A stretch of DNA of 41,107 nucleotides from a virus: the IMG/VR virus record IMGVR_UViG_3300045988_126497, positions 1-41,107 of that record; one strand, given 5' to 3'. The position numbers and the translations under genes were made by a program. The stretch's first letter is position 1. Each line of letters starts with the position of its first letter. Below the pieces are notes generated by a model. That model was given only the letters and a program-made list of their open reading frames with translations. It was not told the DNA's origin and ran no database searches. Positions 1 to 41,107 of this stretch are shown here, piece by piece.

Positions 1-75
1 CATTGGCGATATCTACGCAGATGAAATCATGGATTTTTTGAAGAGTGTAGCGGCGAAGGGGTTGGGGTTTAGCGC
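1..75. repeat. Terminal direct repeat: bases 1-75 identical to 41033-41107 (circular assembly overlap)
   Basis: Exact 75/75 identity read at both window ends. The integrase reading frame is continuous across the join. Confidence 0.95.
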
Positions 76-853
76 GGTATCCAAGCGCAAGAACGTGATG
101 AATGGGATTTTTGATTACGCTATTTTGAAGCGTATGATTAAATACAATCCAGCGCGATCCGCAAAGATGCCGGGTAATCTGCCCAAGGGAACACGAGAAC
201 CGCCGGAAGACGATCAAATCGAGCGGATAAAGGCGGCGTTTGGAAATGAGTTCGGTTTGTTTCCATTGATTCAAGCGTTTACAGGGATGCGCCGCGCCGA
301 GCTTTTAGCGCTTCGCTGGGAAGACTTCGATTGGGATAGAAACGTAATTAATGTGAGGCAATCCGTAGAGTTTATAAACAGCGTCCCACGTGTGAAAAAG
401 CCGAAAACGGATGCCGGTATTCGAGAAATTTCGCTGTTGGAGCCGTTGAAGCAACAACTGCCGCACGATAAACACGGGCTCGTGTTTCCTGGCAAAAGCA
501 GGGAATATATGGGCGCAAATGAATATGACAGCGCATGGAAGCGGTGGTGCATCTCTGCGGGGTTGGCTGTAGAAAAAGAGCAACCAGAGGGAAGAAAAAG
601 GAAATTAAGCGGGTTGGATAAGTGGAGGGTTACGGTCACGTCTCACCAGCTGCGGCACTATTATGCAACTATCCTGTATGAAGCTGGTATTAGGGTAAAA
701 GATATGCAGGATCTTCTTGGGCACGCCGATATCCAAACGACGTTGAATGTGTACACGCACATTCGGAAGCGGCAGAAAAAAACAGCGACAGAGAGGCTGA
801 ATCAGTTTCTTTGTCAAGATGATGTAGAAAATGAGGAAAGCATTGATAAATAA
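1..853 (+). CDS. int: Tyrosine recombinase/integrase, C-terminal part (codons start at base 2; N-terminal part is 40755-41107; joined product about 376 aa)
   Basis: Catalytic signature in order: FTGMRRAELLALRWEDF (Arg), SHQLRHYYAT (HxxR), LLGHADIQTTLNVYTH (His...Tyr). Same frame as the ORF that runs off the 3' end of the window. Confidence 0.9.
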   Translation, partial: IGDIYADEIMDFLKSVAAKGLGFSAVSKRKNVMNGIFDYAILKRMIKYNPARSAKMPGNLPKGTREPPEDDQIERIKAAFGNEFGLFPLIQAFTGMRRAELLALRWEDFDWDRNVINVRQSVEFINSVPRVKKPKTDAGIREISLLEPLKQQLPHDKHGLVFPGKSREYMGANEYDSAWKRWCISAGLAVEKEQPEGRKRKLSGLDKWRVTVTSHQLRHYYATILYEAGIRVKDMQDLLGHADIQTTLNVYTHIRKRQKKTATERLNQFLCQDDVENEESIDK

Positions 854-910
854 GGGGTTTTAATATGTCGCCGTGTCTTGATTAGGTGAATTCCTGAATC
901 CGAACAACTG

Positions 911-952
911 AAAACCCGCAATCCATTGAATACCAACGGTTTGCGGGTTTTT
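911..952 (+). terminator. Rho-independent terminator after int (A-tract upstream and T-tract downstream, so possibly bidirectional)
   Basis: AAAACCCGCAA (911-921) pairs with TTGCGGGTTTT (941-951). The loop can pair further (CCATTG/CAACGG). A T-run follows. Confidence 0.75.
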
Positions 953-957
953 CTATG

Positions 958-1029
958 CCTATTTACGGGTTGTTTTTGAGCTGTTTCTGTGCTCTAAAAT
1001 GCCCTATTTTTACCTAGAATAACCTATTT
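958..1029 (+). repeat. Three direct CCTATTT boxes in the int-proximal intergenic region (candidate integrase arm-type sites / attP region)
   Basis: CCTATTT at 958-964, 1003-1009 and 1023-1029, all in the same orientation, in the 310-bp non-coding gap next to int. Confidence 0.3.
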
Positions 1030-1033
1030 CGGC

Positions 1034-1052
1034 CTGTCAAATTTCTGTCAAA
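1034..1052 (-). repeat. Tandem TTTGACAG boxes (read on the minus strand) with 11-bp phasing
   Basis: The plus strand reads CTGTCAAAtttCTGTCAAA; the minus strand reads TTTGACAGaaaTTTGACAGG. The same tandem motif recurs at 4955-4974 on the plus strand. Confidence 0.6.
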
Positions 1053-1093
1053 AGGTATCCCCCCTCTCGGTCCTGATAACCGGGAAGGGGGAT
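1047..1093 (-). terminator. Rho-independent terminator of the leftward accessory operon
   Basis: On the minus strand, ATCCCCCTTCCCGG-N9-CCGAGAGGGGGGAT forms a 14-position stem (1 mismatch, 1 G-U) followed by CCTTTTG. Confidence 0.7.
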
Positions 1094-1162
1094 TGTCGCG
1101 CTGAATCCTGCGAAGGATTACAGTCGCATTATACGACAACTTTCGTTGTTTGTCTAGGGGCG

Positions 1163-1678
1163 TCAGCAATATAATATTCCGTCTGTGCCTGGTTTCATGT
1201 AAACAGCGCGAGACCATTTAAGCTGTACGGTTTGTTTCAGGTCGTCCCAGTTTATCAGATCGTCCAGCAGAGCGGCGCAGTCGATAGCATAGCCCTCATT
1301 TTTGAAAATCTTGGCCAGGTGATAAATTTTACCAGGCAGGATGTCGCCGGTTCCCCACTGGTAATCAAGCAGGATTTTCAAATCGTGCTCCAGCTTCTTC
1401 TGCTTCTGCGCATCTTTCTTTGCTATATCCCACAGGATTTCTTCTACCGGCAGGCGGTTGGTAGTGCCAACTGGCCACAAGCAGTGAAGGCAGGCTGCGA
1501 AATAACAGCGGCTTTCTAACTCTTCCGGGATAGCTTCGGGCAGGCAACTAAAGAAGTGAGCGTAGGTACTGGGATGCTCGACCTGCAAGAAGGTGCTTTT
1601 TCCTTCATCCCGCAGCGCGTTGCGCTTGCTCAGCGGAAGACGGTCGATGTTGGAGAAGAACTCATTTACTTTTTTCAT
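1163..1678 (-). CDS. Orphan Cse2/CasB-like protein (type I-E Cascade small-subunit-like), 171 aa
   Basis: The size and the C-terminal IDCAALLDDLINWDDLKQTVQLKWSRAVY match my memory of the Cse2/CasB C-terminal signature ((I/L)D(W/Y)xxLxxDLxxW...WxRx(F/Y)Y). No other cas genes or repeat array in the window. Family call is from memory only. Confidence 0.5.
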   Translation of the reverse strand: MKKVNEFFSNIDRLPLSKRNALRDEGKSTFLQVEHPSTYAHFFSCLPEAIPEELESRCYFAACLHCLWPVGTTNRLPVEEILWDIAKKDAQKQKKLEHDLKILLDYQWGTGDILPGKIYHLAKIFKNEGYAIDCAALLDDLINWDDLKQTVQLKWSRAVYMKPGTDGILYC

Positions 1679-1693
1679 AGTAGAAACCTCCTG

Positions 1694-2041
1694 TTAATAT
1701 TCTATGGTGCGTGCCCATGCGGTTTCAAAACCACATCTGCAAACGATGTAGATTTCATGGGTCCATTTTCCTGTCTTCGGGTCGTATTCTCTGGTCGCAT
1801 CGGCCGTTATACTTGTGTTAGGGTTCTTCTTGTAGGCGTCCAAGTCTAGGGCGACGTATTCCGGCTTTCCGTAGCCAGGTTCTCCGATAACGACGCTGTC
1901 CGGGAGTTCAACTTCCACCCAATCAAACTGGTATCCATCCAGGTACCGAGAGAGATTTTCCTCACAATCCGGGCGGCAGAAAAAAACGCTGTCCGAGACA
2001 TTGGAAAAGCCGCTACTCACGACTGCTGCTGTAATTTTCAT
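1694..2041 (-). CDS. Hypothetical protein, 115 aa (paired with the CasB-like gene)
   Basis: SD AGGAGG is 7 nt upstream of the ATG. The stop lies 15 nt before the next gene. No family recognised. Confidence 0.65.
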   Translation of the reverse strand: MKITAAVVSSGFSNVSDSVFFCRPDCEENLSRYLDGYQFDWVEVELPDSVVIGEPGYGKPEYVALDLDAYKKNPNTSITADATREYDPKTGKWTHEIYIVCRCGFETAWARTIEY

Positions 2042-2067
2042 TTCTGTTTCCTCCTAGTTTTTCCTTA

Positions 2068-2096
2068 ATCTTACCAAGGATTACTTGGTTTTGCAA
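2068..2096 (-). promoter_or_regulatory. Candidate internal sigma70-type promoter for the 115-aa / CasB-like gene pair
   Basis: Minus strand reads TTGCAA-17 nt-TAAGAT. The spacer contains a CCAAG-N5-CTTGG hairpin. Confidence 0.35.
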
Positions 2097-2122
2097 TACC
2101 GGCGGACATCTCAAAGGATGTT

Positions 2123-2314
2123 TCAGCTATCACAAACGCCGTACTCGGCGATCTCATCATCTCTTGCTTCGTGTACTTGCTCTAACAGCTCATCGAAATC
2201 AATCTCCCAGTCACGGGCCAGACGTTCCAACTCGGCTAGGTCTACGCAGATAGGGGTATAAGCGCCGAAGAAAGCGTCGTAGTGTTCATTGTCGGGGAAA
2301 TAATAGGTTTTCAT
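2123..2314 (-). CDS. Small highly acidic protein, 63 aa (start moved to MKTYYF...)
   Basis: AGGAGG lies 9 nt upstream of the ATG at 2314. The longer 104-aa form overlaps the upstream gene and has a junk-like N-terminus. Sequence is rich in D/E (…DWEIDFDELLEQVHEARDDEIAEYG). Confidence 0.6.
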   Translation of the reverse strand: MKTYYFPDNEHYDAFFGAYTPICVDLAELERLARDWEIDFDELLEQVHEARDDEIAEYGVCDS

Positions 2315-2411
2315 GGTATTCATCCTCCTGGCCTTCTTGGGTTTGTGTTTAGCCTGCCTCATCAGTGCCGGTAGGCTATTTCCGGCAGACGCCCGGAAGG
2401 GGCGTTTCGGC

Positions 2412-2867
2412 TTATTTCTCCCAACTTCGCTTATCAATCATTTTGACCGATTCGATGCCGGGAAATTGCTTGCGAAGCTCTTCGTATCTGTCTAGGGCTG
2501 CTTTACGTTCTTTTCCTTTGTATATCTCTCGAAGCTCTTCTCTCTGGGTTCCGTCCTCGAAAACCCTTGTTATGGTCACGATATACTCTATATGTTTTTT
2601 CCAATGTGGGACACGCTCGATCTTTAGCGCGTCTTTGTATGGCATCGTTTCGAGTTCTCCGTATCGTTTCGCTAGGGCTGTGCGGTAGTCTTTCAAGGCT
2701 TCCGTTATAGCTTCCAGCTCTTTAATTTTGGCTGCTGCGTCGCAGTCTCTCCAGGCGATTTCTTTCGCCGTTTTCAGGGCTTCTGGGGCTTTTACATAAA
2801 TGTAAATATTGCGCTCGGCTTGCTCTTGGATTTCTCCGAATCGGAGAAGCAAATCTTTGTATCCCAT
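2412..2867 (-). CDS. Hypothetical protein, 151 aa
   Basis: Clean ORF in an operon with its neighbours. Charged, helical composition. No family recognised. Confidence 0.6.
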   Translation of the reverse strand: MGYKDLLLRFGEIQEQAERNIYIYVKAPEALKTAKEIAWRDCDAAAKIKELEAITEALKDYRTALAKRYGELETMPYKDALKIERVPHWKKHIEYIVTITRVFEDGTQREELREIYKGKERKAALDRYEELRKQFPGIESVKMIDKRSWEK

Positions 2868-2888
2868 TGTTACCTCCTGGGGGACCGC

Positions 2889-3404
2889 TTACGCGGTCGC
2901 CCCGATCTTAGCGTACTTGCTGGTCTCTTTTCCGGCCTCGAACGTCTGAGAGCCGTACTTAGTGCGGATGTAGCCCATGTCTTTGTTTCCGCGCTTGCTG
3001 TAACGCTGTCCCTCTTCTGGGTGGTGCCAACTCCACAGCTTCTTCTTGGAGCACCAACGGCAACCAGCCGCTTTCAGTGCGTCCTTGTGTTCCTTGGTGT
3101 TGCCACCAATCCAGAGCCAGGAGCCGCAAAGCTCAACTTCTAGGCCGTCCAGCTTCAGAAGCAGGTCGATGATCTGCCGGAACTCTTCCGGGGTTTCAGT
3201 GGTGGCTGCGGTGCGTCCGGTTGGGTCTGCTGCTGCTCTGTCGTTCTGAGCTTTGGAGAGGATGGAGAAAAGCGCATCATGTTCTGCATTGATAGCTTTC
3301 ATAATCTCCAGGTCTCCGCCTCTGTCGGGGTGGTGCTTCATCGCCAAACGGCGGTATTGAGCTTTCAGCTCTGCGAGGGTGTTCACATTGATAAAGTATT
3401 TCAT
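2889..3404 (-). CDS. J-domain (DnaJ-like) protein, 171 aa
   Basis: N-terminal LAELKAQYRRLAMKHHPDRGGD contains the HPD tripeptide diagnostic of J domains. The C-terminal half (CGSWLWIGGNT...AAGCRWCSKKKLWSWH) has no function I recognise. Confidence 0.8.
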   Translation of the reverse strand: MKYFINVNTLAELKAQYRRLAMKHHPDRGGDLEIMKAINAEHDALFSILSKAQNDRAAADPTGRTAATTETPEEFRQIIDLLLKLDGLEVELCGSWLWIGGNTKEHKDALKAAGCRWCSKKKLWSWHHPEEGQRYSKRGNKDMGYIRTKYGSQTFEAGKETSKYAKIGATA

Positions 3405-3477
3405 GGTTTTATCTCCTATCTGTTTTTGGATTTATGGGGTGCGGCGTTTTACGGGACACCGCCCAGGCCCGGAAGAG

Positions 3478-3648
3478 TTAGTCGATAGTGTAGCCGTTGA
3501 TGCCGTAGAAGTGTTGGAAGCCGAAGCTGGTGACGAAAGCGCTGTCGCCGTCGCCGTCTGTTTCGATCTCCAGCGTGTAGATCGTGGCGAGGTGTCCGGC
3601 CAGGAATGCGGTTGCTGCAATCAGCAGGCAAGCAATGATTCTTTTCAT
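3478..3648 (-). CDS. Small secreted/membrane-anchored protein, 56 aa (below the ORF-track cutoff)
   Basis: Hand translation: MKRIIACLLIAATAFLAGHLATIYTLEIETDGDGDSAFVTSFGFQHFYGINGYTID*. GGAGG SD upstream. N-terminal hydrophobic signal-like segment. Confidence 0.5.
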   Translation of the reverse strand: MKRIIACLLIAATAFLAGHLATIYTLEIETDGDGDSAFVTSFGFQHFYGINGYTID

Positions 3649-3662
3649 GGTGTGTTTCCTCC

Positions 3663-3863
3663 TTAAAACTCTTTCACGATTTCGCCGTTGATGCGGATCG
3701 TTTTCTTTTCCATCCAGCGGCCCACAACGGTAAATTCGTAGGTATCGCCGTTTTCGTATTCGATGAAGTGCAAGTATTTGTAATCGTTTCCCTCATTGAT
3801 AAACTGCTTAATCGGTTCGTCAACGTGAGCCTCGCACCATTCGCGGATTTGAATGTCTGTCAT
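3663..3863 (-). CDS. Hypothetical protein, 66 aa (first gene of the leftward accessory operon)
   Basis: AGGAGG SD upstream of the ATG at 3863. Lies directly downstream of the operator-controlled promoter. Confidence 0.6.
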   Translation of the reverse strand: MTDIQIREWCEAHVDEPIKQFINEGNDYKYLHFIEYENGDTYEFTVVGRWMEKKTIRINGEIVKEF

Positions 3864-3907
3864 CTCGTTTGCCTCCTGTTGTTGGGGTGTTTCCCTTTGA
3901 TGGCTTT

Positions 3908-3936
3908 ATAATACATGGTTTAACCATGGATTGCAA
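3908..3936 (-). promoter_or_regulatory. Promoter of the leftward accessory operon
   Basis: Minus strand reads TTGCAA-17 nt-TATTAT. The 17-nt spacer is essentially the perfect palindromic operator CATGGTT-N-AACCATG. Confidence 0.65.
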
Positions 3937-3997
3937 TAGACGGAATAGACAAAGGTTAAACCATGTATTTAGGCAATTTGTACATGGTTAAACCTTG
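3914..3997. promoter_or_regulatory. Three operator-like sites sharing CATGGTT/AACCATG half-sites
   Basis: O1 3914-3928 is CATGGTTTAACCATG (perfect 7-bp arms). O2 3951-3965 is AAAGGTTAAACCATG (left arm degenerate). O3 3983-3997 is CATGGTTAAACCTTG (1 mismatch). Confidence 0.7.
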
Positions 3998-4014
3998 ACG
4001 GGGTGTGCTACAAT
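3985..4014 (+). promoter_or_regulatory. Candidate extended -10 promoter for the RHH gene
   Basis: TGcTACAAT at 4006-4014. The -35 zone is overlapped by operator O3. Confidence 0.45.
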
Positions 4015-4042
4015 ATAAATACTGAATCTAGGGGGTGAACCA

Positions 4043-4267
4043 ATGACGCTTACGGATGCCCAGCGACGGGCAAACAACAAATACATAGCCAAGGCCACCA
4101 CGGTATTAGGTTGTAAAATGCGGCGGGATGCAGCGGATGAATTCAAGGCGGCCTGCAAAGCCGCCGGAACCACGCCCAACGCTGTTTTCCGGGCAGCAGT
4201 AGATGATTTTATGGCACAGCACCAGGACGCCGCACAGCCCACACCAGAGGGCACAGAGAGCATATAA
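4043..4267 (+). CDS. Ribbon-helix-helix (Arc/CopG-like) DNA-binding protein, 74 aa; candidate repressor of the divergent accessory operon
   Basis: Pattern of a basic N-terminus, a short beta-strand (TVLGCKMRRD) and two helices (AADEFKAACKAAG / TPNAVFRAAVDDFM). Divergent from the operator cluster and monocistronic, with its own terminator. Confidence 0.55.
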   Translation: MTLTDAQRRANNKYIAKATTVLGCKMRRDAADEFKAACKAAGTTPNAVFRAAVDDFMAQHQDAAQPTPEGTESI

Positions 4268-4293
4268 GTATATATAAGAGAGTATAGAAAAGG

Positions 4294-4340
4294 GCCTGTT
4301 TCAACCCATCAAATTCCCTGATGGTAACAGGCTCTTTCCA
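4294..4340 (+). terminator. Terminator after the RHH gene
   Basis: Nested hairpin GCCTGTT...(CCATCA-N7-TGATGG)...AACAGGC followed by a T-rich tail. Confidence 0.6.
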
Positions 4341-4373
4341 TTAAATTTTCTAATAATACTTTTCGTATTCCAC

Positions 4374-4402
4374 TTGATTATCTTGATTACATGTGGTATA
4401 CT
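4374..4402 (+). promoter_or_regulatory. Sigma70-type promoter upstream of terS
   Basis: TTGATT-17 nt-TGgTATACT (extended -10) in an AT-rich 200-bp gap. Confidence 0.6.
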
Positions 4403-4476
4403 TGACTTACCAAAGCAGGATTAAGATTTGTATACTTTCAAATATATAAAACATTTTAAGCAAGGAGATGAAATCA

Positions 4477-4875
4477 ATGGCAAACAAGAAAAAGATTGAT
4501 TCTCCACAAAAATTGGACCTTTTCATTACACAATTTATTGAAAAGTGCCAAAAAGAAGAGCTTATCCCCACTGATTTTGAGTTGTGTAAATTCCTTCAGG
4601 TAAGCCCTACAACCCTTGAGAGGTATGCAAAGGATGGGGAGGAGGGGAGCACATATCACGGATACGCCGCCCCATTAAAAAGACTTCAGCAATTCCGGGA
4701 ACACCGCTTGCTCACCATGCTTGAGCATGATCCCAAAGCTGGAACTGCTGCAATATTCCAGCTCAAGCAAACCAAAAACGGCGGCTATACCGATAGCCCA
4801 ATCAATACAGGAGATCAGGGCGCAACCATTACTCTGAAGATTCAGGGTGTGGGTGGCGCGGATGCGTTTAAGTAG
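4477..4875 (+). CDS. terS: Terminase small subunit
   Basis: HTH-like IPTDFELCKFLQVSPTTLERY followed by ...AAIFQLKQTKNGGYTD, typical of Firmicutes-phage TerS. AAGGAG lies 9 nt before the ATG at 4477 (the track start at 4468 abuts the SD). Confidence 0.8.
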   Translation: MANKKKIDSPQKLDLFITQFIEKCQKEELIPTDFELCKFLQVSPTTLERYAKDGEEGSTYHGYAAPLKRLQQFREHRLLTMLEHDPKAGTAAIFQLKQTKNGGYTDSPINTGDQGATITLKIQGVGGADAFK

Positions 4876-4906
4876 CACAGATATATATATGTATCTGTGC
4901 TTCTCT
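4875..4906 (+). terminator. Hairpin/terminator-like element immediately after terS
   Basis: GCACAGATA-N8-TATCTGTGC (9-bp stem) followed by TTCTCT. Confidence 0.5.
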
Positions 4907-4954
4907 GCTATTATGGCATGGACAACCCATTGATATATAAGGGATTCTGCCATG

Positions 4955-4974
4955 TTTGACAGGGATTTGACAGG
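4955..4974 (+). repeat. Tandem TTTGACAGG boxes with 11-bp phasing
   Basis: TTTGACAGGgaTTTGACAGG. The same tandem motif occurs at 1034-1052 on the opposite strand. Each box contains a TTGACA hexamer, but no -10 sits at 16-18 nt. Confidence 0.6.
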
Positions 4975-4980
4975 CTATCA

Positions 4981-5125
4981 CACACCAGCACAGCAGGCAC
5001 ACCACCACCAGCACGGGCGCGGGCCTGGGCCTGGGGGGTGGGGGCCGGGGGGCGCGTGGCCCCGCGCGGGCGCGGGCGTGTGCGTGCCTACTATATAGGG
5101 GGGTACCCCTACCACCCCCCTACCA
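4981..5125 (+). other. GC-rich island: CA-rich tract, then a G-tract cluster (G-quadruplex-prone), then C-tracts
   Basis: 5015-5052 reads GGGCGCGGGCCTGGGCCTGGGGGGTGGGGGCCGGGGGG. GGGGGGTGG (5033-5041) is complementary to CCACCCCCC (5112-5120). GGGGTACCCC palindrome at about 5098-5110. Confidence 0.7.
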
Positions 5126-5326
5126 AACAGTGAGGGTGTGGCGGAAAAAGGGCGGCTCCTCTGGCGGCCGGCCCCTGTATAGACTACACACACTCTTGAG
5201 AGCAACCCTCCAAACATACCTCTCACGAAAACCATACCCCAGAAAAACGGGGGACACCATTCCAGAAAATCCACTCTGAAATATAGAACAGGACACTCGA
5301 CACGTATACAGATTATAAACAACTAT

Positions 5327-5396
5327 ACCTAGTGTAAGGTTACGGACACGATATGGCATGTTGTGTTTAGGGGTTCAATTCCTCTACTGGGTACCA
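5327..5396 (+). tRNA. tRNA-like element / degenerate tRNA with encoded CCA (anticodon-loop candidate GGC); D-arm reduced
   Basis: Acceptor ACCTAGT/ACTGGGT (one G-U). T-arm AGGGG-TTCAATT-CCTCT, discriminator A, then CCA. Anticodon-like stem-loop with loop ATGGCAT. Only a 3-bp GTA/TAC mini D-arm and no U8. Confidence 0.3.
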
Positions 5397-5747
5397 ACAG
5401 CCCTTCTTCACCAGGGAGGGTGAAAATACAGAACAGAAAGGAAGTGAAATTCGCTTCCATTCTTATCTCTGTTTTTCAGCTGTCTGCGATATGCGAGCGT
5501 GGTTTGCTATTCGGTTTGGGCACACTCTTGGATAGCAGGTACAAGGCCATGCCACGACCAGAAGCAGACTGACAGCCCGGAAAGACGGGCTTATGCTGGG
5601 CTTTAGGGCATGACCTAGAGTTTGGCTCCTTTCGGTGCGGTCTTTTCATTGGTTTCTACCGCCCTCCTATGTGATAAGCTGCGGCCCGTAAATAGCGGCT
5701 CTCTTTGGGACAAGAGCACCAGTGCAATTCTGGTAGGGCATTTATAC

Positions 5748-5835
5748 GCGGGGATACTCAAGTATGGTTGAAGAGGGCGCACTTGAAATGCGCTAGGGGC
5801 TAAGGCCTGCGGGGGTTCAAATCCTCCTCCTCGCG
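5748..5835 (+). tRNA. tRNA-Ser (anticodon UGA), class II with long variable arm
   Basis: GCGGGGA-TA-CTC-AAGTATGGTTGAA-GAG-G-GCGCA-CTTGAAA-TGCGC-(17-nt variable arm)-GGGGG-TTCAAAT-CCTCC-TCCTCGC-G. The architecture parallels bacterial tRNA-Ser. CCA is not encoded. Confidence 0.9.
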
Positions 5836-5851
5836 CCGAATAAGAAAGGAG

Positions 5852-6025
5852 ATGCTCTACTTGGTTTCTCTTGATGCGAGAACGATAGCTGCGATTGAAG
5901 CAGCGCTTTCCAAGGGAGACCGAGTGGAGGTCATTCCAGGAAAGGATAACAGCGTCAAGGTGGTACAGACACACAGAAGGGTTGTCTATACCGCAGGAAG
6001 TAAACAACCCTACTCTAAGTGGTGA
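5852..6025 (+). CDS. Small hypothetical protein (57 codons from the ATG at 5852, or 54 from the TTG at 5861); below the ORF-track cutoff
   Basis: Hand translation: MLYLVSLDARTIAAIEAALSKGDRVEVIPGKDNSVKVVQTHRRVVYTAGSKQPYSKW*. AGGAG abuts the ATG and lies 9 nt before the TTG. Composition is protein-like. Confidence 0.45.
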   Translation: MLYLVSLDARTIAAIEAALSKGDRVEVIPGKDNSVKVVQTHRRVVYTAGSKQPYSKW

Positions 6026-6041
6026 GTAGGAAGGGCCGAAT

Positions 6042-6089
6042 GGGGTCAGTTACTTAGAAAGAAATTTCTAGGTGGCTGGCCCTTTTTTT
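6042..6089 (+). terminator. Strong rho-independent terminator 24 nt upstream of terL
   Basis: 19-bp stem spanning 6042-6060 and 6065-6083 (5 G-U pairs), GAAA tetraloop at 6061-6064, and a T7 tail at 6083-6089. Confidence 0.8.
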
Positions 6090-6112
6090 GTTGCCTGAAA
6101 TGGGGTGAGTTC

Positions 6113-7591
6113 GTGGCAAAGAGAAGAATGTACCGGGGGCAGGGGAAGAAGGAAATCGTCTGGGACCCCGGAGAGGCTAACGCAAAGCAGAAGCTCTTCT
6201 ACATGTCGCGGACAACCTATACAGCCTATGGTGGCGCTAAAGGCGGCGGTAAGACACACGCTGTGCGAATTAAAGCGATAGGCGCAGCCTTCACCAACCC
6301 AGGCATACGTATTCTCATTATGAGAAGGACATATGTCGAGCTCGAAGAAAATCATATCAGGCCAATAGTAAAAATGGTTCCACGTGAAGCCGCGGCTTAT
6401 AACGCTACGACCCATTTGATGACCTTCCACAATGGCTCGACCATCAAGTTCGGCCACTGGGCCGGGGATGCTTCTGAGGACGAATACAACGGTCTGGAAT
6501 ACGACTGGATCTTCATTGACGAGGCGACGCAGTTTTCGGAGAGAGCGTTCAACTTCCTAGGCGGCTGTCTTCGTGGTGTCAATGAGTTCCCGAAGCGGAT
6601 GTACCTGACTTGTAACCCTGGTGGTGTCGGGCACAGATGGGTGAAGCGGCTCTTCATTGACCGGGACTTCAAGCTCAACTCGGACAACCCGGAAGAGAAT
6701 GAGAACCCGGATGATTATAGTTTCATTCCCGCCACAGTTGAAGACAACTATCACCTGATGGCTTCTTCTCCTGGCTATGTTCGGATGTTGGCAAATATGC
6801 CGGAAGACAAGCGAAAGGCTTACCGCTATGGCGATTGGAACGCGATTGGCGGCAACTACTTCCCGGAGTTTTCCGTTGCTACCCATGTGGTGAAGCCCTT
6901 CAAGATACCTGACCATTGGCAGAGATACCGGAGCTTCGACTACGGCCTTGACATGTTCGCATGTTACTGGTGGGCGGTGGATGAGGACGGACGTTCCTGG
7001 TGCTACCGGGAGTTCACCCATAAGGGCCTGATCGTCAAGGAAGCGGCGGACAAAATACATGAACTGACCCTTCCGGGTGAGCATATCGCGGCCACCTATG
7101 CGCCGCCGGATATGTGGAGCAGGCAGAAGGACACCGGCAAGACCATGGCAGAGGTGTTCATGCTGAACCAGGTGGGTCTTATCAAAGCGGATAACAACCG
7201 CGTTCAGGGCCACATGATGATGAAGGAAGCGATGGCTCCCTATCCTCTGCGTGACCCACATGTGCAGGCTATGTTCCGCCGGGATGACGGCACAGTTCCT
7301 GATAAGTTGCCCGGCCTTCTGTTCTTCGACACCTGCAAGGGAGCTGTCGGGGATATTCAGGACATTCAGGCGGACGAGAAGAACCCGAACGACTGCGCCA
7401 AAGACCCACACGAAGTGACCCACACGGTCGATGGTGTGCGCTACTACTGCGTGTCCCGTGTGTTACCGGCAGAAGCCATTCAAGAGAAAGAGCCTGTCTT
7501 CTGGGACGATGAAGAGGACGATGCGCCGGAAGACTACGCAGGATACATGACCGGTGGGGAAGTGACCGCCGGGTATCTCGGCGCTGGATAA
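6113..7591 (+). CDS. terL: Terminase large subunit
   Basis: Walker A YGGAKGGGKTH and Walker B DWIFIDEATQ, with a C-terminal nuclease-type region. 492 aa. GTG start after GGGGTGAG. Confidence 0.95.
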   Translation: MAKRRMYRGQGKKEIVWDPGEANAKQKLFYMSRTTYTAYGGAKGGGKTHAVRIKAIGAAFTNPGIRILIMRRTYVELEENHIRPIVKMVPREAAAYNATTHLMTFHNGSTIKFGHWAGDASEDEYNGLEYDWIFIDEATQFSERAFNFLGGCLRGVNEFPKRMYLTCNPGGVGHRWVKRLFIDRDFKLNSDNPEENENPDDYSFIPATVEDNYHLMASSPGYVRMLANMPEDKRKAYRYGDWNAIGGNYFPEFSVATHVVKPFKIPDHWQRYRSFDYGLDMFACYWWAVDEDGRSWCYREFTHKGLIVKEAADKIHELTLPGEHIAATYAPPDMWSRQKDTGKTMAEVFMLNQVGLIKADNNRVQGHMMMKEAMAPYPLRDPHVQAMFRRDDGTVPDKLPGLLFFDTCKGAVGDIQDIQADEKNPNDCAKDPHEVTHTVDGVRYYCVSRVLPAEAIQEKEPVFWDDEEDDAPEDYAGYMTGGEVTAGYLGAG

Positions 7592-7601
7592 GGAGGAAAC
7601 A

Positions 7602-8024
7602 ATGGAGCTGTATTATGTCTGCTTACTGGTCGTGTTCTTCGCTTTCATGGCAACCACTCTGAATTTGAAGAAGCTGCTTGAGCTGAAAATCAGACAGTTG
7701 GAATTGATGATCGGTAAGTTAACCGACAAAGTGGATGTTTTGTCGCTTTCTAAGTCCAAAACGGACGAGAAGTTGAAGGTTGCCAATGAGCATATCCGTG
7801 AGCTTCGTCGGAAACTGGACGAAGTGGAAGCAGATGTTGACAGTTGTGTGGAAGAGGTTGACAAGTCTGCCAAGAAGTTCGAGAAGCTAGAAGACTACAT
7901 GGAAGACCGCAAGGCGCTGGACCAGCGAGAAGAGCGGATGCTCAGTGGCATCAACAACATTATGTCTTATGACATGGGTGTAGCACGGGAGGCGGTGAAG
8001 AACCTTGAAGAAAGCGAAGACTGA
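7602..8024 (+). CDS. Membrane-anchored coiled-coil protein, 140 aa
   Basis: AAGGAGG SD. N-terminal TM helix LYYVCLLVVFFAFMATTL, followed by heptad-rich charged sequence. Confidence 0.65.
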   Translation: MELYYVCLLVVFFAFMATTLNLKKLLELKIRQLELMIGKLTDKVDVLSLSKSKTDEKLKVANEHIRELRRKLDEVEADVDSCVEEVDKSAKKFEKLEDYMEDRKALDQREERMLSGINNIMSYDMGVAREAVKNLEESED

Positions 8025-13481: not shown

Positions 13482-15584
13482 ATGGCGAGAATTACGACCG
13501 GAGCCGACGAAAAAGTTTTTCGTATCCAAGAATTCCTTGGCCTGAATGAAAACCCGGACGGCGACACCAAACTGAAAATGGGGGAAGCATCGGTCATTCG
13601 GAACTTCAAAGTCACCCGTGACCGGAATTTGCAGAGAAGACCGGGACAGCAGATGGTGAAGGGCTTACTGCAAGCCTATACCTTGCAGGTGGACAACAAC
13701 ACGCAAGAAGTTCGCGTTGATGAACATGTCTCCGGCAAGCTTCGGATGCACCCCACCTGTACCGTGACGACAGACGGCTTCCTGGCAGTCTCCGGGGACG
13801 AGGTCTCTGTGAGCTATGAGAACGCGGAACAGTACGCAGGATACTTTTGGCGATACGACGAGAACTTCACCTATCAGCTTGTTTCCTGCACCTATGACGC
13901 AGAACGGGATGAGTACACCTGGAAGATGAAGCGTTGCCGGGCAGTATCCTCTTCCACAAACCAAAAAGTTGCTGGCCTATGGGCTGGCAACGTGAAGGGG
14001 AAAGAGTACCTGGTCGGCGCTGCCGACGGAAAGCTCTGGAAGCTCCACGACGGGACATGGAAGCGGGAAGCAATTGGTGACCTGGACACCACGGAACCGG
14101 TGTTTTTCTTCGGCTACTCTGAAAAGCTCTATATCATGGCGAAAAACCAGTACAAAGAGTGGGACGGAAAAACACTCCAGGACGTGGACGGGTATCGGCC
14201 TATCGTGACCATTACCGTCGTTCCGAGCGGCGGCGGCACCACTTATGAGCAGGTGAACAAGCTCAACGGGAAGCGGCGCTGTTGGTTCTCCCCGGACGGC
14301 ACTGCCACCACCTTCACCCTGCCGGAGAAGGACTTGAAGTCCGTAGACTGGGTAAAGAACAAGGCGGCAGAGAATGAGCCTGAGATCGAGAAGAGCAAGT
14401 ACACCGTTGACCTGGAAAAGGGGACCGTGACCTTCAGTACAGCCCCGGAGAAGGGGATCAACACCATTGAGATCGCGTGGGAAGTGAAGAAGAACTTCCG
14501 GGACAAGGCGCTTGCCATGAAGTATGCAGAGACCTTCAACGGAGCAAATGACAACCGCGTATTCCTATACGGAGACGGCACGAACGAGGCATATTACTCC
14601 GGCCTGGACAACGACGGAAAACCGAGAGCAGACTACTTTCCGGATATGAACGTTTTGAAAGTCGGGGACGCAAACACCCCTATCACGGCGCTCATTCGGC
14701 ACTACTCCCGGCTGATCGTCTACAAGTCTACGTCTACCTACTCCGTGCAGTACGGCGTGACTACGATGGTGGACAACACCACGGCGGCGACCTTCTACGC
14801 AACGCCCGTGAACCGGGCCATTGGGAACGTGGCACCTGGGCAAGCACAACTGGTGCTGAACTCCCCTAGAACGCTCTTCGGGCATGACTTGTATGAGTGG
14901 AAGAACAGCTCTTCTTACTCTGCCAACATGACCATTGACGAGCGGCAGGCACGGCGTATCTCTGACCGCATCATGGGGACGTTGGCAGGCTTTGACCTGG
15001 AACACTGCCGTTGTTGGGACGACAACGACAACCAAGAGTATTACATCATCAACAAGGATGACAGGGCGCTGGTACACAACTACGCTGCCGACGCCTGGTA
15101 CTGCTACACAGCCTTTGACGTGACGTGCTTTGTAAACTTCCGGGGGAAGCTATATAGCGGAGACAGCAAGGGACGTTTGAATCTCATCGCTTACACCAAC
15201 CGGACGGACAACGGGGAGAAAATCGAAAGCTATTGGGAAAGCGGCGCGGAGAGTTTTTCTCAGGACTTCATGCGGAAGTACAGTGCCATGCTGTGGGTAG
15301 GCATCAAGCCGGAGACCCACGGTGAAGTCTATGTGACCGTTCAGACAGACCGAAAATCGGCTTACACAAACAAGGTCGTGGTCTCGTCCCTGATTTCGTT
15401 TTCCGGGGCGGATTTTCGGAAGTGGAGCTTCAACCCGAACCGAAAGCCGCACATGAAGCGCCTGAAGATCAAGGCGAAGAAGTTCGTGTTTTACAAGCTG
15501 ATTTTCCGAACGGAATCCATCAACACCACCGTGACCATCCTGTCCGCTGACATGCGGGTACGATTCACGGGCTATGCGAGGTGA
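13482..15584 (+). CDS. Large virion/tail structural protein, 700 aa
   Basis: Lies between the capsid module and the fibre gene. No enzymatic motif recognised. Called by synteny. Confidence 0.6.
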   Translation: MARITTGADEKVFRIQEFLGLNENPDGDTKLKMGEASVIRNFKVTRDRNLQRRPGQQMVKGLLQAYTLQVDNNTQEVRVDEHVSGKLRMHPTCTVTTDGFLAVSGDEVSVSYENAEQYAGYFWRYDENFTYQLVSCTYDAERDEYTWKMKRCRAVSSSTNQKVAGLWAGNVKGKEYLVGAADGKLWKLHDGTWKREAIGDLDTTEPVFFFGYSEKLYIMAKNQYKEWDGKTLQDVDGYRPIVTITVVPSGGGTTYEQVNKLNGKRRCWFSPDGTATTFTLPEKDLKSVDWVKNKAAENEPEIEKSKYTVDLEKGTVTFSTAPEKGINTIEIAWEVKKNFRDKALAMKYAETFNGANDNRVFLYGDGTNEAYYSGLDNDGKPRADYFPDMNVLKVGDANTPITALIRHYSRLIVYKSTSTYSVQYGVTTMVDNTTAATFYATPVNRAIGNVAPGQAQLVLNSPRTLFGHDLYEWKNSSSYSANMTIDERQARRISDRIMGTLAGFDLEHCRCWDDNDNQEYYIINKDDRALVHNYAADAWYCYTAFDVTCFVNFRGKLYSGDSKGRLNLIAYTNRTDNGEKIESYWESGAESFSQDFMRKYSAMLWVGIKPETHGEVYVTVQTDRKSAYTNKVVVSSLISFSGADFRKWSFNPNRKPHMKRLKIKAKKFVFYKLIFRTESINTTVTILSADMRVRFTGYAR

Positions 15585-15589
15585 TACCT

Positions 15590-18526
15590 ATGAGCTTAGA
15601 AAAGCTGAACAAAGACTTAAACATCGTCCAGAAGTTGGACGACGAACCCAACGACGTAGGCGGTCTGTCTGCTGCCGAACTGAAGAAGAAGTTCGACGAA
15701 GGGCCTTTGACCATCCAGGAGTATATCAACGTCACCTTGCTCCCCGCTCTGGAAACGCTGGGCGTGGAGACGAGCGTACAACTCCCGGAAGGGGCAGGTT
15801 TCAAGTACATCCGCCTGAACGCAGACCGCGTACTGGAAACCAGCCAGGACGGCGTGACTTGGCAGGCGTCCGGTTCTGCCGGTCACATCATTATGAACCC
15901 CGCCGGAGAGACCCTGCCCCAGCGCGGACGGATGCAGTTTGACAACTGCGAAGTATCAGACGACGGTACCAAGACCATCGTCCACGGCGTGAAGGGCGAT
16001 ACCGGCCCCCAGGGAGAACAGGGTATCCAGGGCGTGAAGGGCGACAAGGGCGACCGAGGAGCCACCGGCCCAAGCATCGTTCCCAGCATCGACACAAACG
16101 GCGTCATGTCCTTCACCATCCAGGACAGCGCCATTGCGCCCCAGGCTGTGTCTGTCCGTGGGCCGCAAGGCCCGCAGGGCGTCCAGGGCGCACAGGGCGC
16201 ACAGGGCGCCAGAGGCCCGCAGGGCATCCAGGGTATCCCAGGTGTCCAGGGTGTGCAGGGAGAACAGGGTGAACAAGGCCCCACCGGCCCCCAGGGACCG
16301 CAGGGGAAAGCGGGGACACAAGGCCCCACCGGTGCCCAAGGTCCTGCTGGTGCCCCCGGTAAGGACGGCACCAGCCTCTACATCGAGGACATTTACAGCA
16401 CCCTTGCCGCGCTGAAAAACGCCATTCCCACCGGCAATGACAAGATGTACATGGTCAAAGCCGACGGTGAGTGCTACATCTGGTCGGAGACACAGGGCGA
16501 CTGGACTTCCGTCGGCAAGCTCCAAGGCCCGACCGGCCCCCAAGGCCCCCAAGGTCCCCAGGGTGTGCAGGGTGAGACCGGCCCGGAGGGCAAACAGGGC
16601 AGGCAAGGCCCCCAAGGCATCCAAGGTGTGCAAGGCCCCCAAGGCGATACCGGCCCGGAAGGACCCCAAGGCCCGGCAGGTGTGAGCGGCCAAAACGGAA
16701 AAAGTGCCTTTACCGCTGCAGTAGAAGCAGGCTACACCGGCACAGAGACCACCTTCAACGCCGCCCTCTCCAAAGTTCCCGGCCATATCGCTGACCAGAA
16801 CAACCCCCACAAAGTCACCGCCGAACAGGTGGGCGCACTGCCGCTGAGTGGCGGGACGATGACGGGGGAAATCAATTACACTGGAACTGGTGACGGGTGG
16901 ATTTTGAAGACCTATGAGGTCACAAACGCTGAAAGCGGCATACATTTTGACAGAGGAATTTATAAGCGGAACACGTATCCAGGTCTTGCTGCAACGACCA
17001 ACGATAATTCGGCTTCTGCATATATGGGGCCGATTTCTACTGAAAGAATCCAAATTATAGTAGGCGACAAAACGGGCAAAAGCGCGCTAGAATTTACCCC
17101 AGGTTCTATCGGAGTAGCAGGTAAAATAAAGGGAATCGTCACCCCCACCTCCGACGACATGCCAACCCCGAAGTCTTATGTAGACAGTGCCATCGCAGCC
17201 AAAGTAGGAGACATCCTCAAACCCACCACCCCACCCCTCATCGGCCTCCCCCCCTCCACCACCCCCGACGGCATGTTTCAGGCTTTGGGAAATACGGGGG
17301 AGTTGCATGTGTGGCGGAAGACGGTGGTGTCTGGCACTGCGAAAGTTGAACTGGAACCTGCTGTTAGTGGTTACATTGTATCCAATAACGGCAGTAACTA
17401 TAACCAAATTGTCAAATATTCCAGCACTATCGACGAAAAAGGCAACTTATCCGGCACGATAACTACACTGACCGTGGCTTATAACACCAGCAACTCTGAT
17501 TTGTTTGTGTTGAAAGGGAAATATTTTGAGGCTAATACAACGGAGATTTCGTCTAATCTGAAATCTCCTGGAGGCGTTTGGTATATCCCTAATGATGCAT
17601 CCATCCAATACATCACAGGCCAACCGAATACCACTGGGTATCCTTATTACTATACCCATGTTGCAACTAAAATGCAGAGGGTGGTGTATGTCCCCGCCGG
17701 AACAACCACCACCTACCCTGTATCCACCAACCCCAATGCGTATCAAGAGGGCGATGATGCGAAAGAGGCGGGGTATACGTTGGGGGAGGTTATAAAATCA
17801 ACTGGCGCATACGGTTTTTTTGGTATGATGGGTTTTGCCTACGGAACATCTTACTTCCAAAAAATATCGGATGCTATCGAGGTCGCTGATGATGGTAGCG
17901 TAAGTCACGTCGCCCCGGTTGACGATATTTCTGGCTCCACTGTCCTTGATAGCGCTTCGGTACTCAAGGAAAGGATTGCCGGGAAATATATAACACTATC
18001 CGAAAACAGCTATACAAAACAACCGTACACCAATGAACTTCCCCCAACCAATGCGGTTTTGTATATTCCGGCTGACGTAAACGTCAAAATGATTCATCCC
18101 GAAGGTTCTTCTTTATCGAATCAGTACGCCTTGTTCTTCGACCGCTACCAACCCGTTACCGGCTACGCCGCTATCCCCGCTGGAACCATCATCGAATACC
18201 TGGGGAAATTGGGGGATAAAAGAATGGTACAGGCTGGTTCTTACGTCGGGACAGGAGGGTACAGCAGTAATAGCCCGAATAAACTGCTGTTTAATTTCGC
18301 TCCTAAACTTGTAATAGTGTCTGCATACGTTGGCAACAAATTCACAACCGTCACATTCGTCTATGATAACTATATGGCAACTTATTCGACGGATGCCAGT
18401 ATGTATTTAAATGAGTTATACGTGAATTGGTTAAAGAATGGCATTTCTTGGTATACCAACGGTTCTACTGCTGAGAGCCAATTAAATCTCTCTGGCAGAA
18501 CTTATAAGTATATCGCCATCGGCTAA
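15590..18526 (+). CDS. Tail fibre/spike protein with collagen-like triple-helix tracts (start moved to MSLEKLN)
   Basis: GAGGTGA lies 5 nt before the ATG at 15590. Three Gly-X-Y tracts. The C-terminal roughly 600 aa are non-repetitive (receptor-binding candidate). Confidence 0.85.
15986..16699 (+). repeat. Collagen-like GXY coding repeats (three tracts: 15986-16072, 16160-16369, 16526-16699)
   Basis: [29 protein letters not shown]; [28 protein letters not shown]...GAPGKDG; [25 protein letters not shown]...GVSGQNGK. Confidence 0.9.
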
Positions 18527-40754: not shown

Positions 40755-41107
40755 ATGATTAAGAGGAAAGACGGACGGTGGCAGGAGCAGGTGAAGCTGC
40801 CTGGGATGGACAAACCAAAGTATTTCTATGGCAAAACACAGAAGGAAGTACGGCGGAAGATGGCGGAATGGAGCCAGGCGGAAGAGGAAGCGAAAACCAA
40901 AGCTGTGCTGTTTGAGACGGTGGCGGACGAGTGGCTTAAATTTAAGATCGAGGTGGATAAAGTCGGCTGGAACACGGAGCACGGGTACATGCCCTCTCTG
41001 CGCGAAGCGAAGGACTGGTTTTCTGGGCGGAACATTGGCGATATCTACGCAGATGAAATCATGGATTTTTTGAAGAGTGTAGCGGCGAAGGGGTTGGGGT
41101 TTAGCGC
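40755..41107 (+). CDS. int: Tyrosine integrase, N-terminal part (runs off the window end; continues at base 2 via the 75-bp overlap)
   Basis: GGAGG SD lies 8 nt before the ATG at 40755. MIKRKDGRWQEQVKLPG...KYFYGKTQKEV is a typical arm-binding N-terminus of phage/ICE integrases. There is no stop before the window end. Confidence 0.9.
   Translation, partial: MIKRKDGRWQEQVKLPGMDKPKYFYGKTQKEVRRKMAEWSQAEEEAKTKAVLFETVADEWLKFKIEVDKVGWNTEHGYMPSLREAKDWFSGRNIGDIYADEIMDFLKSVAAKGLGFS

Follow-up and report, generated by a model that had tools for sequence, protein, structure and literature searches.

The stretch of DNA analyzed here, IMG/VR virus record IMGVR_UViG_3300045988_126497 (41,107 nucleotides in all, referred to throughout as the window), carries near its left end an open reading frame (ORF) of 171 aa on the minus strand (1163..1678). 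A reading of the letters alone had taken this ORF to be a solitary homolog of cse2/casB, which encodes the small subunit of the type I-E CRISPR effector Cascade, and hence a possible anti-CRISPR (Acr). The ORF is real, and its sequence is exactly as that sequence-only reading had quoted it. The first ~75 nt of the window (1-75) recur at its end (41033-41107), and we therefore regard the window as a complete, circularly permuted genome of ~41,032 bp, linearized within the integrase gene. With a large terminase, a portal, a major head protein, a DnaB-type helicase, an anti-repressor, a CI-like repressor and an integrase, it is a temperate siphovirus-like phage. As had been proposed, the cse2 homolog is the last gene of a leftward operon and adjoins the phage attachment site (attP), with the junction at ~869 defined by an integrated copy of the phage in contig L171; it converges on the integrase gene. 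The features at this end of the genome are as follows.

1163..1678, minus strand: solitary diverged cse2/casB (cas11e) homolog, candidate type I-E anti-CRISPR decoy, on the evidence of homology, fold, residue changes and the ratio of nonsynonymous to synonymous substitution (dN/dS)
40755..41105, plus strand: N-terminal part of the tyrosine integrase, equivalent to residues 1-117 of its L004 counterpart; the gene runs on across the junction of the circle
2..853, plus strand: C-terminal part of the integrase, convergent with the cse2 homolog (PF00589, E = 2.7e-24)
855..869, no strand: attP region; homology to the integrated prophage in L171 begins at 869

The gene is solitary, as had been claimed: six Cas proteins taken from related host operons, used as tblastn queries, reveal no other cas gene in the 41-kb window, in which neither a CRISPR array nor a host-like I-E repeat was found. 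It is the only cas homolog in the circular phage and in every related mobile-element locus, and it is encoded outside any cas operon, i.e., not between cse1 and cas7. Among GenBank phages, megablast with positions 1-8000 of the window gave no match; PHROGs holds no family for the 171-aa protein, and the BFVD viral structure library holds no structural counterpart of its model.

Direct scans with hidden Markov models (HMMs) name nothing but Cse2/Cas11e. The Pfam model PF09485 scores 20.8 bits (E = 5.6e-4) and TIGR02548 scores 18.7 bits (E = 1.4e-3), short of their curated cut-offs (gathering cut-off of 24.6 bits and 28.5 bits, respectively), and both matches are limited to the C-terminal ~50 residues; six PADLOC Cas11e models match as well (best E = 1.6e-6), two of them spanning residues 33-158. 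What settles homology, with these models below their cut-offs, is the identity to an operon-encoded Cse2 and the profile of the family. By tblastn, the protein aligns over its full length with the Cse2 of the L009 operon at 42% identity (E = 2e-37), and a profile search retrieves 160 relatives at E <= 1e-3, mostly of 160 to 180 aa and matched over their full length. PF09485 is matched by 109 of the 115 relatives scanned (best E = 5.9e-48), and the family profile finds the solved Cse2 structures with E values of 7e-17 to 8e-7. Loci were searched with a 7-sequence alignment as query, the broad family alignment being too divergent. Its nearest relatives in genomes (38-44% identity) belong to Pseudoflavonifractor, Butyricicoccus, Lachnospiraceae and an Evtepia-like metagenome-assembled genome, and all eight of eight lie in cas3-cse1-cse2-cas7-cas5-cas6e operons with typical I-E arrays (29-nt repeat, 61-nt period).

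The predicted fold points the same way. The AlphaFold2 model of the 171-aa protein has nine helices, a mean predicted local distance difference test score (pLDDT) of 87.2 and a predicted template modeling score (pTM) of 0.84. In a Foldseek search of the PDB, the top 14 matches are all Cse2/CasB (probability 1.00, template modeling score (TM) of 0.6-0.76), and the next falls below a TM of 0.25; the reference structures for Cse2/CasB are PDB entries 2ZCA, 3WA8, 4H7A, 5U07 and 4TVX. Three elements had been picked out from the sequence, namely an N-terminal helix, an aromatic helix (YFAACLHCLWP) and a C-terminal motif (IDCAALLDDLINW...VQLKWSRAVY); each can be aligned, column by column, with the consensus of the Cse2 family (FF..LD.L..G.R.AL.RAAG; RWF.AACLHCLW; ID...LL.DL..WN.....VQ..WAR), and the stretch of E. 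coli CasB that had been quoted for comparison (...LDWPLMARMLTWW...) is correct by the MG1655 sequence. Both the HMM and the structural comparisons thus bear out the proposed identity. Since identity to an operon-encoded Cse2, the family profile and the fold agree, we consider homology to Cse2 established, and the 171-aa protein is a genuine Cse2/CasB homolog with a predicted Cse2 fold. Net charge and pI were considered as discriminators of the phage protein and discarded; the Cse2 family spans pI 4.8 to 9.2, which makes them uninformative.

The representatives of this family include several unusual architectures. Three (P0048, P0071 and P0080; 674-691 aa) are Cse1-Cse2 fusions, one reads through into Cas7e, and P0134 (393 aa) is a tandem Cse2-Cse2 fusion, i.e., the Cascade belly dimer as a single chain. 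Three others (P0045, P0101 and P0106; 231-251 aa) join an N-terminal XRE-type helix-turn-helix (HTH) to a Cse2-like domain (L022 620-1375), and P0101 has Asp at the position equivalent to R101 of E. coli Cse2. These HTH-Cse2 fusions, for which the genomic context is one 1.6-kb contig, may be self-regulating fusions of an Acr with an anti-CRISPR-associated (Aca) regulator, or else Cse2-derived regulators.

The host of the phage is known from an integrated copy. The 88.6-kb contig L171 holds the prophage with the cse2 homolog outermost, abutting host genes for HPF, Hsp20, a phosphotransferase system (PTS) IIC component and NAPRTase. Positions 869-2000 of the window align by blastn to 6763-7894 of this contig, so that the phage/host junction lies at ~869, 16 nt after the integrase stop codon, and because homology to L171 starts there we place attP just after that stop codon. 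The host is Evtepia sp., to which NCBI assigns proteins identical to three of those encoded in the flank. A complete I-E locus (cas3-cse1-cse2-cas7-cas5-cas6e-array-cas1-cas2) is present on Evtepia sp. contigs, among them GCA_034102745.1, and the Evtepia I-E operons have their own intact cse2; the suggestion that the host lineage be examined for a type I-E system is in this way answered at the level of the genus. Among cellular relatives, the Evtepia Cse2 (P0154) comes closest to the phage protein (44% identity).

We compared the phage clade with 15 operon-verified host Cse2 sequences and with the wider family of 115 representatives. The phage clade retains the hydrophobic core and the C-terminal helices; it keeps 73% of the host-conserved positions in residues 131-160 and 25% in residues 16-35. 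Five positions that are invariant or nearly so in the hosts are replaced.

Position 24: R in host Cse2, D/E in the phage clade
Position 27: G in host Cse2, K/R in the phage clade
Position 99: R in host Cse2, D in the phage clade
Position 120: R in host Cse2, H in the phage clade
Position 128: K in host Cse2, E/D in the phage clade

All 15 host sequences have R at both 24 and 99. In the wider family, R or K occupies these positions in 98/115 and 100/115 members (85-87%), and position 27 is G in 105/115 (91%) and K/R in the phage copies. Acidic residues at both 24 and 99 occur, among the 115 family representatives, in the phage clade only, and 21/21 phage copies have a non-basic residue at 24 and D at 99. 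A profile alignment (hhalign) with CasB of MG1655 maps D24 of the window protein to E. coli R27 and D99 to R101, and the Cse2 motifs of T. thermophilus, M. ruber and T. fusca are consistent with this mapping. A functional small subunit lines the Cas7 backbone as a head-to-tail dimer. In E. coli, R27 and R101 form a salt bridge to D22 of Cas7 and, once the target is bound, grip the flipped-out bases of the target strand; R101A abolishes immunity, the R27A/R101A Cascade purifies without Cse2, and Cascade lacking Cse2 binds double-stranded DNA (dsDNA) poorly (PMC4787809; PMC5965380). The host Cas7 retains the NLNRDD motif. Judged from these alignments, then, the phage protein has charge-reversed both arginines of the Cse2 anchor (D24 and D99 for the R27 and R101 equivalents).

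These changes bear on whether the phage might supply a working small subunit, one that boosts or complements host Cascade, for instance against competing phages in a lysogen, or serves hosts with a defective cse2. Full length, an intact fold and purifying selection (see below) would suit such a protein, and two operon-encoded Cse2 proteins tolerate the loss of one or both arginines: P0141 (L020 1791-2270) lacks both (E24, M99), and P0050 (L018 8001-8501) lacks the first (E24). For these two, either the alignment may be shifted, or some I-E variants may attach the small subunit differently. We nevertheless consider a working subunit very unlikely; all 21 copies carry charge reversals at the two anchor arginines together with a replacement of G27, R101A alone abolishes immunity in E. 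coli, the gene occupies an anti-defense slot described below, and the Evtepia operons already have an intact cse2.

The cse2 homolog is not confined to the window. Many gut-metagenome contigs of ~41 kb that belong to the same phage species hold copies that are 93-100% identical. A different integrative element (L001) has a 69% copy (P0003) together with a toxin-antitoxin pair and a Y1 transposase, near a gene listed as AcrVA2-like in a precomputed Pfam assignment that was not reproduced with our local copy of Pfam. A 40% copy (P0004), also solitary, is found on a 75-kb phage-like contig with a serine integrase. In a neighbor-joining tree, the window group joins L001 with 100% bootstrap support and, with P0004 added, the group has 92.5%; in this tree of sequences, the mobile-element copies are monophyletic and separate from operon-encoded Cse2. 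Pairwise dN/dS is 0.03-0.23, with dS up to 0.47 (seven phage alleles, 21 pairs), and since these ratios denote purifying selection we take the gene to be functional and not a relic. Descent from a captured cas operon that has since decayed into a functionless remnant would be in keeping with a gene that is solitary, diverged and under the curated HMM cut-offs, and it is scarcely credible against these ratios, an ORF that is intact in 21 contigs from many samples and a monophyletic clade that extends across three unrelated mobile elements; the selection analysis effectively refutes it. One allele (L008 10001-10516) stops four codons early (…GTD*), dropping ILYC, and this early stop makes the last residues appear dispensable; in the model of the 171-aa protein, the ILYC end has a pLDDT below 50.

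The remainder of the leftward operon, and the signals around it, comprise the following.

1047..1093, minus strand: terminator-like hairpin downstream of the cse2 homolog, with a stem at 1057-1093 followed by UUUU (-26 kcal/mol, z = -2.4)
911..951, no strand: second, stronger hairpin (AAAACCCGCAA...TTGCGGGTTTT) between the integrase gene and the cse2 homolog, read from the sequence
1694..2041, minus strand: 115-aa acidic protein (pI 4.5), strain-specific cargo, no family match
2123..2320, minus strand: 65-aa very acidic protein (pI 4.05), upstream of the cse2 homolog and its constant companion
2348..2412, minus strand: self-cleaving ribozyme of the type II hammerhead class, lying 28 nt upstream of the 65-aa gene
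2412..2867, minus strand: 151-aa protein, variable cargo that travels with the J-domain gene
2889..3404, minus strand: 171-aa J-domain (DnaJ-like) protein, variable cargo (phrog_15863, E = 2e-47)
3478..3863, minus strand: two small acidic ORFs at the head of the operon (56 aa, 3478-3648; 66 aa, 3663-3863)
3910..3996, no strand: divergent promoter region with an operator-like palindrome of 14-16 nt in three copies (TACATGGTTTAACC / GGTTAAACCATGTA)
4043..4267, plus strand: 74-aa protein divergent from the operon, possible ribbon-helix-helix (RHH), Aca-like regulator (RHH_10, weak, E = 0.09)

Several of these had been proposed from the sequence, with mixed outcomes. The terminator assigned to 1047-1093 is present as a hairpin with its run of U residues, which a consensus terminator scan of this interval did not pick up; the hairpin at 911..951 is plausibly a bidirectional terminator. 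The internal promoter placed at 2068-2096 agrees with the consensus at 8/12 positions only and fails a promoter scan, and the 115-aa protein cast as a partner of the cse2 homolog is not conserved, being confined to near-identical strains and missing from L002 and L004-L008. The dedicated repressor claimed for the operon comes down to a weak RHH match; the three operator-like palindromes nevertheless do lie in the divergent promoter region, where promoter-like hexamers occur on both strands. The 74-aa gene, on this match a possible Aca-like regulator, is identical in many related phages and in 168 index blocks, making it a handy marker of the phage family; the phage itself is represented by hundreds of contigs from metagenomes (123-168 index blocks). 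The 56-aa gene is present in all of the sibling phages introduced below.

Directly after the stop codon of the cse2 homolog lies a sigma-70 promoter-like site, TAGACA-17-TATAAT (1128-1156, minus strand; 11/12 consensus positions), with the stable hairpin and UUUU of 1057-1093 ~35 nt downstream; promoter and hairpin could specify a ~70-nt small RNA at the prophage end or could be a coincidence beside the operon terminator. An RNA anti-CRISPR in the form of a solitary repeat unit was considered and dropped, as the window has no host-like I-E repeat and the hairpin downstream of the gene is unlike a repeat.

A self-cleaving ribozyme lies ahead of the 65-aa gene. Hammerhead II ribozymes recur in L005 (9293-9357), L006 (8055-8119), L007 (9632-9696) and L008 (9641-9705), and twister-P5 ribozymes are found in L002 (9289-9343), L004 (1936-1990) and L008 (9114-9168), the last of which thus has both classes. 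In the window and its siblings, a gap of 13-28 nt in every case separates the end of the ribozyme from the 65-aa acidic gene downstream of it. That two unrelated classes occupy an equivalent position suggests mRNA cleavage that separates the downstream module from the upstream cargo, such that a polycistronic mRNA would be cut to part the 65-aa gene and the cse2 homolog from the rest. The 65-aa protein shares 54% identity with the C-terminal half of the L042 protein of the AcrIC5 family; its single-sequence model (pLDDT 74) finds nothing in the PDB by Foldseek (TM < 0.45).

Sibling phages, which we define by an identical CI repressor or an identical 74-aa divergent gene, differ in the cargo carried between the integrase and the packaging module. 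This slot holds the following.

The cse2 homolog with a 63-65-aa acidic gene
The J-domain protein with the 151-aa gene
The ArdA anti-restriction protein (PF07275, E = 1.6e-31 in L035 and L005)
An AcrIC5-family gene in L042 (38.7 bits, over the gathering cut-off)
AcrVA2-like and AcrIC5 genes in L177

The AcrVA2-like family listed again in L177 is the same family as in the unreproduced Pfam assignment of L001. ArdA replaces the J-domain gene in siblings L035, L005, L038, L040 and L168, and the J-domain and 151-aa genes can be viewed as an alternative cargo pair. Further ORFs in the slot encode 101, 109, 86, 192, 152, 95, 69 and 71 aa; these small ORFs are candidate new anti-defense genes. Because known anti-restriction and anti-CRISPR families swap with the cse2 homolog there, the slot bears the signature of an anti-defense hot spot, and the earlier description of the operon as an anti-defense locus is strengthened by the ArdA, AcrIC5-family and AcrVA2-like genes of the siblings. 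A variable anti-defense slot is thereby documented in a widespread human-gut Evtepia phage, and it can be mined for further inhibitors, the candidates being the 65-aa acidic gene, which is constant, and the remaining small ORFs.

The composition of the slot also raises the question of which system the Cse2 copy would inhibit. Having been retargeted away from the assembly of I-E Cascade, it might inhibit a different CRISPR type or a different step (for example CRISPR RNA, Cas3 or adaptation): a Cas homolog can inhibit a noncognate type, as AcrVIA2, a Cas3 homolog, does with type VI (Katz et al.), the AcrIC5-family and AcrVA2-like genes in the siblings suggest that the hosts also have I-C or V-A systems, and the Cas7-anchoring arginines are lost, so the ancestral binding mode has changed. 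We regard retargeting as distinctly unlikely, however, given that the relative nearest to it in cells is the Cse2 of the I-E system that the host genus itself carries and that the C-terminal, partner-contacting helices keep 73% of the host-conserved positions, a degree of retention for which persisting contact with I-E partners is the simplest explanation.

We favor, with a probability of roughly 0.55, the reading that the phage-captured Cse2 copy acts as a decoy anti-CRISPR against type I-E, a function that we infer from sequence and model; most likely, mobile elements of gut Clostridia, phages among them, captured the cse2 homolog and have kept it as an anti-CRISPR. During infection or lysogeny, the phage protein would compete with host Cse2 for the C-terminal bundle of Cse1, for the second Cse2 and for the belly position, and would be unable to perform the arginine relay. 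Cascade would be left without a properly anchored belly, or with a belly unable to lock the R-loop; Cascade would then fail to bind dsDNA stably and to recruit Cas3, and the phage would escape type I-E interference. Since the R27/R101 anchors are lost, stable incorporation on the Cas7 backbone is less certain, and sequestration, or a loose subunit that does not lock, is favored. Of the Cse2 mimic originally proposed, homology, fold and host thus hold up, and simple incorporation in place of Cse2 is the part that has become less certain.

A more specific form of this reading, possible although we would sooner doubt it, is that the protein is the first anti-CRISPR to act through the arginine relay of the small subunit. 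The charge-reversed Cse2 would bind the Cse1 bundle and/or host Cse2 with its Asp residues facing Cas7 D22 and the flipped-out bases, so that host Cse2 or Cse1 would be trapped in dead-end heterodimers, or Cascade would be unable to lock the R-loop or license Cas3; delivery would be from a ribozyme-processed, repressor-controlled anti-defense cassette at the prophage end. If this is true, the D24R + D99R back-mutation should yield a neutral or even a functional subunit.

A number of observations weigh against the decoy. The R27A/R101A Cse2 of E. coli is lost from Cascade, and a charge-reversed protein may for this reason not sit on the Cas7 backbone at all; loss of the anchor weakens the simple poison-subunit version. 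Cas11 was dispensable for plasmid interference in E. coli under the conditions of one study (PMC12235044), so mere exclusion of Cse2 might not be enough. The operon-encoded P0141 and P0050 lack both arginines and the first arginine, respectively, the cse2 homolog is present in only some sibling phages, and the direct Pfam and TIGRFAM scores are under the curated cut-offs. Finally, no spacer links the I-E systems to the phage: none of 113 unique spacers from seven Evtepia I-E arrays, a small sample, matches it, and neither does any of 82 spacers from species-representative genomes or of ~2,500 taken from metagenomic arrays that share the repeat core (I-E repeat, GTATACCCCACGCACGTGGGGATGAACCG). 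The best spacer matches cover 21-24 of 32-33 nt, and a recurrent match of an L182_3 spacer was set aside, as it covers only a Shine-Dalgarno/ATG motif.

The lack of spacer matches would also suit a reuse of the helical Cse2 scaffold for a role unrelated to CRISPR, as a nucleic-acid-binding or regulatory protein, in superinfection exclusion or as an inhibitor of another defense. Such an exaptation would account for the replacement of the most conserved functional Cse2 residues, and the slot does hold CRISPR-unrelated cargo (ArdA and the J-domain protein). It is unlikely in view of the 42-45% full-length identity to host-lineage Cse2 and near-identity to it in the C-terminal interface motif, of the cognate I-E system in the host and of a pattern that is that of validated Cas-derived Acrs; a decoy directed at type I-E remains the reading that we prefer.

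Elsewhere in the phage genome, tandem repeats with periods of 9, 18 and 27 nt (CAGGGCGTC…) lie at 16175-16672 (plus strand) within a 981-aa structural ORF (15581-18526) and are typical of collagen-like Gly-X-Y repeats. A 2,237-aa ORF (22019-28732, plus strand) has no PHROG match. Just upstream of the large terminase gene are a tRNA-Ser(tga) (5748-5837, plus strand) and a gut-2 small RNA (RF02990, 54 bits; 6006-6053, plus strand), both of which are conserved in the sibling phages.

Anti-CRISPRs derived from Cas subunits have been shown only recently, and only for type I-B and type VI of Listeria. If the decoy reading is true, the principle extends to type I-E Cascade, the best-studied CRISPR complex, and to its small subunit, with a signature that can be read directly: the phage has reversed exactly the two residues whose mutation detaches Cse2 and abolishes immunity. 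The protein might then serve as a probe of R-loop locking and as a possible off-switch for type I-E tools. A catalog of 358 orphan viral cas genes has been drawn up from IMG/VR; in the literature available to us, no mention of Cse2/Cas11e among these genes was found, nor any report of a phage-borne Cse2/Cas11e homolog as an Acr.

Compared with the Cse2/CasB (Cas11e) of cellular operons, the phage protein has the same fold and length and a colinear full-length alignment at 42-45% identity to Cse2 of the Evtepia lineage, and it keeps the AACLHCLW aromatic core and the C-terminal LL.DL..W....VQ.KW.R motif. It differs in having no cas operon, array or other cas gene on its element, in lacking the acidic C-terminal tail of the host type and in scoring below the curated family cut-offs. 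With the E. coli mutants R101A and R27A/R101A (van Erp et al. 2015, PMC4787809), it shares changes at the same two positions. Those mutants are loss-of-function alleles, however, and not dominant inhibitors, whereas the phage protein combines Asp charge reversals with many further changes in helix 2 and is itself maintained by selection on a phage.

The nearest precedents among known inhibitors are AcrIB3, a Cas5 homolog, and AcrIB4, a homolog of the C-terminal domain of Cas8b, which are ~38% identical to their Cas counterparts and inhibit type I-B (Katz et al., bioRxiv 10.1101/2023.06.24.545427; Nature 2024). Like the phage protein, AcrIB3 is a copy of a Cas subunit (~38% identical) minus a functional element; it replaces the native subunit, and Cascade assembles but cannot engage DNA. 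The two differ in the subunit (Cas5) and the subtype (I-B) concerned, and incorporation into Cascade, shown for AcrIB3 by coimmunoprecipitation, is doubtful for the phage protein, in which the residues that attach Cse2 to the backbone are lost. In type I-B, the C-terminal region of Cas8b corresponds to the small subunit (Cas11b). AcrIB4 from Listeria is likewise a mobile-element Cas homolog (38% identity to the C-terminal ~90 residues of Cas8b) that forms its own clade outside cas loci. It targets I-B, measures ~9 kDa and stems from part of a large-subunit gene, whereas the phage protein is a full-length, free-standing I-E Cse2 homolog of 171 aa; inhibition by AcrIB4 was shown experimentally, and the phage protein is known here from sequence and model. 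The principle of Cas-derived Acrs is therefore known, and the phage protein is a candidate for the first that is derived from Cse2 and directed at type I-E.

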